Below, in pieces: positions 30,023-30,892 of a DNA stretch of 64,000 nucleotides. Below the pieces are notes generated by a model. The model was not told where the DNA came from. It was given only the letters and a program-made list of their open reading frames with translations, and did not search any database. Origin of the DNA: Terracidiphilus sp. (GTDB taxonomy: Bacteria; Acidobacteriota; Terriglobia; Terriglobales; Acidobacteriaceae); the NCBI GenBank assembly GCA_050014455.1, contig JBEKDH010000001.1, positions 6,315 through 70,314 of the forward strand, given 5' to 3'. Made by a program: the position numbers and the translations under genes. The first letter of the stretch is position 1. Each line of letters begins with the position of its first letter.

Positions 30023-30892
30023 TCACCTGCTTCCCGCTTGAAATCCCACCTGTTGAGCCGTTGCCAAAGGGGCAAGCCGTCCGCCCTCCAGGCGCAGGAT
30101 CCGCCCGCAGCGCGCGGCCAGATCCGGGTTGTGCGTTACCAGGATCGAGGTCAGGCCGTGGCTCAGGTGCAAGCGTTCGATCAGGTCAAAGACGCGTCCG
30201 GCGGTGATCTCGTCCAGGTCGCCGGTGGGTTCGTCGGCCAATAGCAGCCGAGGGTTGTTCACCAGCGCGCGCGCCAGCGCCACGCGCTGCTGCTCGCCGC
30301 CAGACAGTTCGCCTGGCCGGTGGTCGGCGCGATCCTCCAGGCCAACCTCCCTGAGCCAGTTTGCCGCCGTTTGGAGCGCATCGACTTTCCACCCCAGCGA
30401 CGAAGACCTGTTGCTGGGGACCCCGGTCCTCATTTTGCCGCGCGCCAGCAGTGGCATGGCCACGTTCTCCAGCGCCGTAAACTCCGGCAGCAGGTAATGG
30501 AACTGCCAAACGTAGCCGATCTCCCGGTTGCGAAAGGCCGCTGCCTCGCGCGCGGAGAGTCGAGCCACATCGGTTGAAGCGCAGTTTACGGTTCCCGCCG
30601 AAGGGGCATCCAGCGCGCCCAGAATGTGCAGGAGCGTGCTCTTTCCCGCGCCGGACTGGCCCACGATGGCCACCATCTCGCCGGATTCCACCTGGAGGTC
30701 GAGGCCGTGAAAGAGGTTGAGCGCGCCGCGCGCGGTCCTGTAAGTCTTCTCCAGGCCGCTGACCTCAATGATCGGGGTCTGGCCGGACTGAGCGTGCGCC
30801 TGACTCTGCCCGCCCCCAGCCCCCGCCCGCAACTCAGGCTCCCGCGCTTGGCGGGTGGCCTGGGGAGCAGCCGCTGGAGAGGTTTCAATCAT
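30023..30892 (-). CDS. lolD: LolD-like ABC transporter ATP-binding protein carrying a 14-aa insertion
   Basis: GQSGAGKS, LPEFTALENVAMPLL, LSGGEQQR, LADEPTGDLD, VTHN. Confidence 0.88.
   Translation of the reverse strand: MIETSPAAAPQATRQAREPELRAGAGGGQSQAHAQSGQTPIIEVSGLEKTYRTARGALNLFHGLDLQVESGEMVAIVGQSGAGKSTLLHILGALDAPSAGTVNCASTDVARLSAREAAAFRNREIGYVWQFHYLLPEFTALENVAMPLLARGKMRTGVPSNRSSSLGWKVDALQTAANWLREVGLEDRADHRPGELSGGEQQRVALARALVNNPRLLLADEPTGDLDEITAGRVFDLIERLHLSHGLTSILVTHNPDLAARCGRILRLEGGRLAPLATAQQVGFQAGSR
30386..30427 (-). repeat. 42-nt palindromic element in-frame within lolD
   Basis: ACCGGGGTCCCCAGCAAC-AGGTCTTC-GTCGCTGGGGTGGAAA; 10-bp stem; encodes TGVPSNRSSSLGWK. Confidence 0.65.

Follow-up and report, generated by a model that had tools for sequence, protein, structure and literature searches.

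Palindromic repeats inserted in frame into protein-coding genes have been described as Rickettsia palindromic elements (RPEs; Ogata et al. 2000 Science 290:347, as summarized in PMC10969869 and PMC3733652), some of which end in CGTC (PMC3733652). Intragenic copies have also been reported for the GTAG/CGTC class of repetitive extragenic palindromic sequences (REPs) in several phyla, including insertions in uvrA, together with a distinct group of proteins in Acidobacteria that resemble REP-associated tyrosine transposases (RAYTs; Di Nocera et al. 2013, PMC3733652). Bacterial miniature inverted-repeat transposable elements, or MITEs, comprise, for example, Correia/NEMIS, RUP, ERIC and Nezha (reviewed in PMC10969869), and MITEs have been found in phage and viral contigs as well (PMC11602168). 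Here, we describe a palindromic element with a 38-bp core that lies, as part of a 42-nt in-frame segment, in the lolD gene of a Terracidiphilus species (Acidobacteriota; Acidobacteriaceae). The segment occupies positions 30386–30427 of a 64,000-nucleotide stretch of contig JBEKDH010000001.1 (assembly GCA_050014455.1, positions 6,315 to 70,314 of the forward strand), hereafter called the window. Our literature searches on palindromic or MITE elements in Acidobacteria turned up no description of this 38-bp family, and Rfam returned no match to the element at E ≤ 1.

A sequence-only reading of the locus had counted 33 residues between the PLL and VGL motifs of the encoded LolD versus 19 in E. coli LolD, and our alignment to the E. 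coli protein agrees with this spacing. The 14 extra residues correspond, as had been proposed, to a 42-nt palindrome with a 10-bp stem, whose arms are 10 nt each, 90% complementary and 8 nt apart; on the window, 30386–30427 reads TTTCCACCCCAGCGACGAAGACCTGTTGCTGGGGACCCCGGT. A search of 30 related genomes (18 from the same genus and 12 from the same order) yielded 28 intact LolD orthologues, and exactly 14 aa, or 42 nt, were missing at the insertion point in all 28 of them. The features of the locus are the following:

30023–30892, minus strand: gene for a LolD-family (MacB-type) ABC ATPase, host of the insertion (open reading frame (ORF) list, NCBIfam profile and structure match).
30386–30427, minus strand: 42-nt extra segment TGVPSNRSSSLGWK, 14 in-frame codons, LolD residues 156–169 (absent from orthologues).
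30389–30426, plus strand: 38-bp conserved core CCACCCCAGCGACGAAGACCTGTTGCTGGGGACCCCGG (covariance model, family consensus and flank information profile).
30392–30401, plus strand: 5' stem arm CCCCAGCGAC (inverted-repeat search and covariation across the family).
30402–30409, plus strand: conserved 8-nt loop GAAGACCT, nearly invariant across copies and species.
30410–30419, plus strand: 3' stem arm GTTGCTGGGG, with one G:T against the 5' arm (inverted-repeat search and covariation).
30385–30388, plus strand: left flanking 4-mer CTTT, presumed degenerate copy of a target-site duplication (family-wide 4-bp signal).
30427–30430, plus strand: right flanking 4-mer TCCT, presumed partner in the target-site duplication (family-wide 4-bp signal).

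Taken alone, the lolD palindrome is not statistically unusual in GC-rich DNA. Two further inverted repeats of 9–10 nt occur within the same 221 nt of lolD, and the RNA-fold z-score of the hairpin was −0.55, which makes the thermodynamics uninformative. Instead, the segment is significant because it belongs to a repeat family, as judged by the E-value of a covariance model (R1), by the other copies and by the covariation of the stem. The model matched the lolD segment at 30387–30426 (C1:36701–36740 in genome coordinates) with 64.8 bits and E = 1.2e-15, and the 42-mer has many further copies in the genome, with matches at 85–95% identity. Thus, neither of the two outcomes that would have spoken against a mobile repeat, namely orthologues with a similar loop of unrelated DNA or a 42-mer without further copies, was observed. 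Across 96 copies aligned with their flanks, conservation runs from CCACCCC to CCCCGG, that is, over 38 bp, while the two bases before the core are variable. The family consensus is TTCCACCCCAGCGACGAAGACCTGTCGCTGGGGACCCCGG, and the core takes the form CCACCCC-NNN-GACGAAGACCTGTC-NNN-GGGGACCCCGG, with a 10-bp stem, an 8-nt loop and the conserved tails CCA- and -ACCCCGG. Double compensatory changes were present in five of the ten stem pairs (AGC/GCT, ACG/CGT, GGC/GCC and others). The resulting covariation score of 0.262, compared to 0.112 in shuffles, was reached by none of 500 shuffles, and the signal collapsed when the pairing was slid by 1–3 columns.

The source genome is a draft metagenome-assembled genome (MAG) of 4.37 Mb in 263 contigs, in which BLAST and fuzzy matching recovered 18 copies with ≤9 mismatches from the consensus and the covariance model approximately 34 (E < 0.01). 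With the same model, 18 genomes of the genus carried between 1 and 76 copies each, and genomes of a neighbouring family of the order few or none. A scan for the exact pattern, covering one genome per species, gave >119 loci, nearly all of them in MAGs labelled Terracidiphilus or Acidobacteriaceae, from peat, bog and soil. Consistent with a dispersed repeat, the word depth in peat metagenomes was 3,000–22,000 over positions 30388–30426 and about 10–200 in the adjacent bins. The element also forms direct tandem arrays with a 42-nt period, with six units at one locus (L077). As for the lolD copy itself, the 289-aa protein is identical on 12 contigs and both insert junctions are spanned, with 0–1 differences, by contigs of four independent peat or wetland metagenomes, so the insert is not an assembly artefact. 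These results confirm that 30386–30427 is a real in-frame extra segment in lolD and one copy of a dispersed family.

We then examined the sequences flanking the core. In a set of 101 copies outside tandem arrays, the left and right 4-nt flanks of the core agreed at all four positions in 9 copies and at three of four in 24, while permuted partners gave means of 0.96 and 6.7, respectively, and none of 2000 permutations reached the observed values; controls with shifted boundaries gave 0–2 and 5–11. The sequence of the duplicated 4-mer varies among copies (ATTT, CTTC, CTCT, TTGA, CAAG, TGAG, ACTT, ACCT), as expected for target-site duplications, and the target preference is weak and T/C-rich on the element strand. 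Empty and filled versions of the same site could be compared in two genes. In an M20 dipeptidase gene, the empty site is GGC AAG CCN, and filled sites read [GAGC]-38 bp-[AAGC] in the source genome and [AAAC]-core-[AAGC] in a relative. In a PALP gene, encoding a threonine-dehydratase-like enzyme dependent on pyridoxal phosphate, 29 of 29 orthologues from the genus are empty at GCN AAR GCN and the source genome reads [AAGG]-38 bp-[AAAG], making this insertion private to the source genome among 30 genomes of the genus. No stop codon occurred in any of the six frames in 75 of 118 copies (flanks included), versus 15% of composition-matched shuffles. Since the 38-bp core and the 4-bp duplication sum to 42 mostly stop-free base pairs, a gene that receives a copy is lengthened by 14 codons and in most cases acquires no stop.

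Genes indeed host many of the copies. About 18 of the 34 copies in the source genome lie in frame inside real genes, LolD included, and Pfam confirmed as hosts M20, a histidine kinase, PALP, GH39, GcvT, HolA, RlmN, LUD, DUF1175, QueC, Tgt, an XRE-cupin regulator, GNAT and UvrA. The proteome search suggested by the sequence-only reading accordingly found GVPxDRSSSLGW peptides in many other real proteins. The frame G[VA]PxDRSSSxGW is used in the M20 peptidase, the histidine kinase, the PALP enzyme, GH39, HolA, RlmN, GNAT and a 1463-aa TamB-like protein that carries two tandem copies and whose identity was assigned by eye, not by Pfam. The PPQRRRPVAGDPG frame is found in GcvT and DUF1175, the FHPSDEDLSLGTP frame in the LUD-domain protein and UvrA; Tgt, QueC and the XRE-cupin regulator likewise read the element in a frame other than G[VA]PxDRSSSxGW. 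For other species, coding copies were called by codon usage, using a caller trained on the source genome (86% sensitivity, 9% false positives per frame), which recovered the Pfam-confirmed cases checked and called approximately 23 of 102 copies coding. Counting tandem arrays once, the GVPxDRSSSLGWK frame accounted for 18 of 32 coding insertions, compared to 16% expected when the target preference derived from the flanks of intergenic copies was applied to long ORFs (binomial p = 3e-7). An in-frame lysine codon (AAR) as preferred target was considered as the cause and rejected, given that the weak preference predicts only those 16% for the favoured frame. The frame bias is best explained by selection on the encoded peptide, whereby a hydrophilic Gly/Ser/Pro-rich loop is tolerated.

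A composite insertion was seen in Tgt (queuine tRNA-ribosyltransferase; C5:11620–11701), where the element and an adjoining CCCAGG-type REP are together inserted in frame (peptide ...GSPRTGSRPWGGGSSHSGTWEGWVPQIPILGPG...) and split the Pfam TGT match into two stretches.

The host gene of the window copy is lolD, an essential-type ABC ATPase gene. Its 289-aa product has LolD (TIGR02211) as its top NCBIfam match, with profile positions 1–220 corresponding to residues 41–274 and 14 residues in surplus. The scores lie below the cut-offs of TIGR02211 (255.8 bits versus an equivalog cut-off of 307.75) and PRK11629 (232.4 versus 360), yet LolD is the best-scoring family despite this, and the 14-aa insert and a 40-aa N-terminal extension fall outside the LolD models. 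The closest solved structure by sequence is that of E. coli LolD (E = 1.5e-59), and the residues of the Walker A (GQSGAGKST), Q-loop (Q130), LSGGQ signature (LSGGEQQR), Walker B (LLLADEPTGDLD) and H-loop (H254) motifs are invariant in the LolD alignment. Parts of lolD were matched exactly by metatranscriptome contigs, which indicates that this gene, or that of a near-identical strain, is transcribed. The genes lolC and lolE do not adjoin lolD; its neighbours encode a GH3 glycosidase and a Clp ATPase, as they do on the contigs of the nearest homologues.

To place the insert in the protein, we used an AlphaFold2 model built on an alignment of 67 sequences, which replaced one of 13 homologues that was too shallow (predicted local distance difference test score, pLDDT, of 48). 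The mean pLDDT of the final model was 82, with the core above 90, and low confidence was limited to residues ~151–166 and the termini. Two predicted helices, 140–150 (ENVAMPLLARG) and 167–182 (VDALQTAANWLREVGL), bracket the insert, and the stretch between them that holds most of it had a mean pLDDT of 55–68, falling below 50 at residues 158–162. The model superimposed on E. coli LolD from LolCDE complexes (9rlc_D) with a template-modelling score of 0.93, a root-mean-square deviation of 2.1 Å and 46% identity. In this model the insert thus forms a flexible loop that links two helices within the alpha-helical subdomain, where the sequence-only reading had placed it, with the remaining fold predicted to be intact. 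The loop would sit away from the Walker A, Q-loop, signature and Walker B motifs, and we infer that it is functionally neutral, or nearly so, for LolD.

One lolD orthologue of the same genus (L030; G017:C10:219669–220073) aligns over residues 22–156 only and continues into an unrelated open frame with an internal TGA. The break, either a frameshifted gene or an assembly error, is located where the element inserts in other lineages.

The insertion is not unique to the lineage of the window, as about half of the closest LolD homologues from metagenomes are filled at the same site. Specifically, 55 of the 114 closest homologues in public protein collections carry the insert at the same codon, including double and triple tandem versions (P0041, P0073 and P0066, the latter with three identical units) as well as shortened, decayed remnants (P0062, P0089, P0105). 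A maximum-likelihood tree of LolD computed without the loop columns required 21 state changes, at least 10 of them forced by well-supported branches, though the tree is unrooted and parsimony on it does not distinguish gains from losses. P0002, the nearest homologue (94% identity over the columns kept for the tree; support 99), is empty, as are 18 members of the well-supported 20-sequence clade that contains the window's LolD. The M20 site behaved similarly, with 34 of 119 homologues filled and 17 changes needed on the tree, at least 9 of them forced. Across the LolD lineages, hardly any synonymous variation was seen in the codons of the element, including the rare AGG and TCT, whereas the flanking codons vary freely; this points to conservation at the level of the DNA element, or to young copies, and not to conservation of the peptide alone. 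A scan of metagenome contigs for lolD loci returned empty sites only. Repeated hits on a single codon are beyond what a 4-bp target can account for, which favours an old insertion with repeated precise loss. We therefore infer that the patchy occupancy mainly reflects an old insertion, precisely lost time and again through slippage from one 4-bp repeat to the other over the hairpin, to which some new insertion or allele exchange probably adds.

Considering all these data, we regard it as probable that the 42 nt in lolD stem from one insertion of a very small, non-autonomous and MITE-like mobile palindromic element with a 4-bp duplication. The element would insert with a duplication of 4 bp, each insertion adding 42 bp or 14 codons; an insertion into a gene would neither shift nor truncate the frame and would only add a 14-residue peptide. 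Selection would then decide which insertions persist, and the survivors would mostly read G-V/A-P-x-D-R-S-S-S-L-G-W-K, a hydrophilic, flexible surface loop rich in Gly, Ser and Pro. The putative mobilizer is a transposase making 4-nt staggered cuts, given that sharp ends and a duplication of fixed length point to such an enzyme and to MITE-like behaviour. Several observations weigh against this interpretation. No transposase was found, nor any longer parent element sharing the termini; a search of the source genome for solo left or right ends of a longer autonomous element gave only chance-level matches; and the core of 38 bp (42 with the duplication) is below the usual MITE size. At lolD itself, the flanks CTTT/TCCT have diverged and agree at only one of four positions, so that the duplication is deduced from the family and not seen at the site. 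None of the metatranscriptome contigs matching lolD spans the insert boundaries, which bears on the translation of the loop, and coding calls outside the source genome stem from a heuristic on codon usage whose false-positive rate is about 9% per frame. Furthermore, 4-bp target specificity does not predict the refilling of the same site in many lineages, and, if the insert is old, constraint at the DNA level, gene conversion, re-insertion or the like would have to be invoked to account for its near-consensus DNA. IS1380, which has CC ends and a 4–5-bp duplication, was considered as the parent and rejected: it is absent from the source genome and most copy-rich relatives, its ends are unrelated and its loci carry no element-like ends.

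Could other processes account for the same observations? An ancestral or adaptive LolD loop with a coincidental palindrome and coincidental copies, or an assembly artefact, would fit with how common 10-bp imperfect palindromes are in GC-rich DNA and with the unremarkable folding energy. We nevertheless consider it already refuted, as the segment is missing from all outgroup orthologues, from E. coli LolD and from the nearest homologue, most copies of the 38-mer are intergenic and match at E ~1e-15, and the junctions recur in independent metagenomes. Another possibility is a REP-type repeat moved by a RAYT, that is, a tyrosine transposase of the Y1/HUH type, or spread in the manner of REPINs (REP doublets), instead of a MITE moved by cut-and-paste or copy-and-paste, with flank matches that are incidental. 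In size and shape the element is like a REP, being an imperfect palindrome of 38 bp with conserved tails and a stem that covaries; intragenic REPs are documented in several phyla, Acidobacteria possess a distinct RAYT-like group named 'TIRYT' (PMC3733652) and other REP-like families coexist and nest with the element. Moreover, the source genome encodes nine Y1_Tnp proteins (IS200/IS605/RAYT-like, PF01797; contigs C52, C43, C92, C86, C19, C39, C130, C54 and C142). However, copies of the element neither flank nor adjoin these genes: in the 263-contig draft, none of the nine loci adjoins a covariance-model copy, the nearest being ~13.5 kb away on contig C19, which also counts against the transposase-driven insertion that we favour. 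The Y1_Tnp proteins may serve other REP-like families. In addition, the consensus lacks a terminal GTAG or CGTC tag, the tandem copies are direct repeats with a period of 42 nt and not inverted REPIN doublets, and the strongly supported 4-bp duplication fits poorly with the HUH/RAYT route, which leaves none. Hence, we judge this route improbable.

A more serious competitor, though still an unlikely one, holds that the element is no longer mobile. In this view, lolD and M20 would each have been invaded once, long ago, in the common ancestor of a large clade of Terracidiphilus; the inserts would have been kept for an acquired function of the hairpin or peptide and repeatedly lost by precise deletion promoted by the hairpin, and the uniformity of the family would be due to selection and not to turnover. 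This view would account for the same site being filled in so many homologues of 73–100% identity (55/114 for lolD, 34/119 for M20), for synonymous positions that are conserved inside the element while flanking codons are saturated, and for decayed remnants at the same site (e.g. P0062, P0105, P0149). Direct repeats of 4 bp together with a hairpin are the classic substrate for precise slippage deletion. Yet private insertions exist, as in the PALP gene that is filled only in the source genome among 30 genomes of the genus; perfect four-of-four duplications of many different sequences indicate relatively recent insertions; copies are nested in other repeats and present in viral contigs; and copy number ranges from 1 to 76 among congeners. 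With 18 of the 20 LolD sequences in the window's clade being empty, a local gain is also more parsimonious. Insertion of a mobile element with a 4-bp duplication therefore remains our preferred explanation. One could go further and propose, tentatively and with some doubt, that the family is a currently active, frame-neutral transposon that can move into and out of coding sequences without disrupting them. The recurrent filled and empty states at the same codon of lolD and of M20 (at least 9–10 events each) would then result from re-insertion directed to the site or from precise excision that is efficient, and not from passive inheritance only. If so, the element would act as a reversible source of surface loops of 14 residues, and tandem multiples thereof, in housekeeping proteins across soil Acidobacteria.

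The core pattern is present in 18 IMG/VR viral contigs. These predicted viral or prophage contigs (L310–L327) carry exact-core copies, two with perfect duplications (CCTT, CCGA) and five sharing the flanks TTCG...AAAG; phages of these Acidobacteria may be carriers or vectors of the element. In addition, a contig of a MAG labelled 'uncultured Gammaproteobacteria bacterium' (L046; CAWEZY010000004.1) holds a perfect copy flanked by the duplication TGAG/TGAG. Either this contig belongs to Acidobacteriaceae and was mis-binned or mislabelled, or the host range is wider.

The element coexists with other palindromic repeats. The sequence-only reading had likened it to the intergenic GGGTGCCCCA..TGGGA repeats of the window; the general architecture is indeed shared, but these repeats form a separate family (CCCAGGTCCC-loop-GGGACCTGGGGCACCC, with 74 genome matches to the CTGGGGCACCC tail) that sometimes hosts the nested element elsewhere. 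In the form TTTCCCAGGTCCC-loop-GGGACCTGGGGCACCC, this REP-like family occurs in the window at ~40532, 52977, 53177, 59426 and 60587. Its stems covary (GTCCC/GGGAC, GTCTC/GAGAC, GTGCC/GGCAC, GTCCG/CGGAC), and the loop of some copies is replaced by the small palindrome CTCCGCCGCGGCGGA. Where the 38-bp element is nested in this family in other genomes, it lies between the 3' stem arm and the stem-closing CTGGGG. More generally, intergenic copies of the element are often nested in palindromic repeats, namely the CCCAGGTCCC...GGGACCTGGGGCACCC family, a GGTGGCTTTTAC...GGAAAAAGCCAC hairpin and a GTCATCCTGAGCG... repeat. A further palindrome, CCCATCCTTTCGCC...GGCGAAAGGGTGGG, has a 6-nt loop at 49393–49440, and the same arms enclose a GTCATCCTGAGCGAGCGAAGCGAGTCGAAGGACCTGC element at 36962–37050; this GTCATCCTGAGCGAGCGAAGCGAGTCGAAGGACCTGC element hosts copies of the 38-bp element in other genomes. 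Conversely, the 8-nt loop of the 38-bp element itself is replaced or expanded in some copies (C88:16586–16637 and C51:14626–14677; the UvrA copy is 52 nt long). One M20 homologue (P0236) has 28 extra residues due to such a replaced or expanded loop, and at another locus (L245) the loop is replaced by TCCGCCGCGGCGGA. Hairpin loops seem to be preferred landing sites for other mini-repeats. Lastly, a related palindrome family, CCACCCTAGCGACAAAGACAA-AACGTCGCGAGGGTGGGGCACCC, was found on three contigs (C52:26689, C181:5249, C198:5009). Its stem start, CCACCC..GCGAC, is that of the element and its tail, GGGGCACCC, that of the CCCAGG-type REP, a hint that such mini-palindromes may be related members of one superfamily.

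In-frame palindromes were known from Rickettsia, and later from REPs elsewhere; here they occur on a large scale in abundant, free-living peat Acidobacteria. About half of the copies in the source genome lie inside real genes, including lolD, holA, uvrA, tgt, rlmN and gcvT, and these genes survive the element because 38 + 4 = 42 bp are mostly stop-free in all frames. The strong bias towards one frame is a natural experiment on tolerated peptide insertions, and the patchy occupancy of lolD and M20 among close homologues is a marker of strain-level variation in metagenomes. At the same time, annotation and homology searches should take into account that repeat-derived peptides such as GVPSDRSSSLGWK and FHPSDEDLSLGTP link unrelated Acidobacteria proteins. 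Should the element be active and reversible, it would offer a tractable system for studying insertion-driven evolution of protein loops.

How does the element compare to the known systems? Like REPs, it resembles imperfect palindromes of 20–40 bp with variable, complementary stems and conserved tails, which are mostly intergenic with a minority in ORFs, including DNA-repair genes such as uvrA; the element likewise has a UvrA copy. Unlike REPs, it has no GTAG/CGTC end (GACG/CGTC occurs only at the stem-loop junction) and, in the draft genome, no RAYT association, and it shows a 4-bp target duplication and direct tandem arrays instead of head-to-head dimers. The element thus has the size and dispersal of a REP but lacks the terminal tag, the flanked RAYT gene and the duplication-free insertion. 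With MITEs it shares most features: it is non-autonomous and bounded by inverted repeats, has a target-site duplication of fixed length, gives occasional in-frame fusions and is found in viral contigs; it is also palindromic with CC...GG termini and has no enzyme-coding capacity. It departs from them in size, being 38 bp long versus the usual ~50–500 bp and consisting essentially of two abutting ends and an 8-nt loop; as to a parent insertion sequence, IS1380 was rejected and the source genome yielded no solo ends.

The closest parallel in terms of genomic behaviour is that to the RPEs, which the sequence-only reading had drawn in describing a palindromic miniature element, in frame in lolD and analogous to RPEs; all three parts of this description are borne out. 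Both are dispersed palindromes of which a large share lies in frame in functional, often housekeeping genes, where they encode a tolerated surface peptide with one frame being preferred. They differ in that RPEs are ~100–150 bp long and belong to an obligate intracellular alphaproteobacterium, while the element consists of 38 conserved base pairs with 4 bp duplicated at the insertion site, lacks a terminal tag, appears unrelated in sequence to judge by its consensus, and lives in free-living peat and soil Acidobacteriaceae with genomes of 3–8 Mb. Two further traits seen for the element are that one and the same site is filled in some lineages and empty in others, and that copies can be arrayed in tandem with a 42-nt period. 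We therefore treat it as an analogue of the RPEs and not as a member, set apart by its size, host phylum and consensus.

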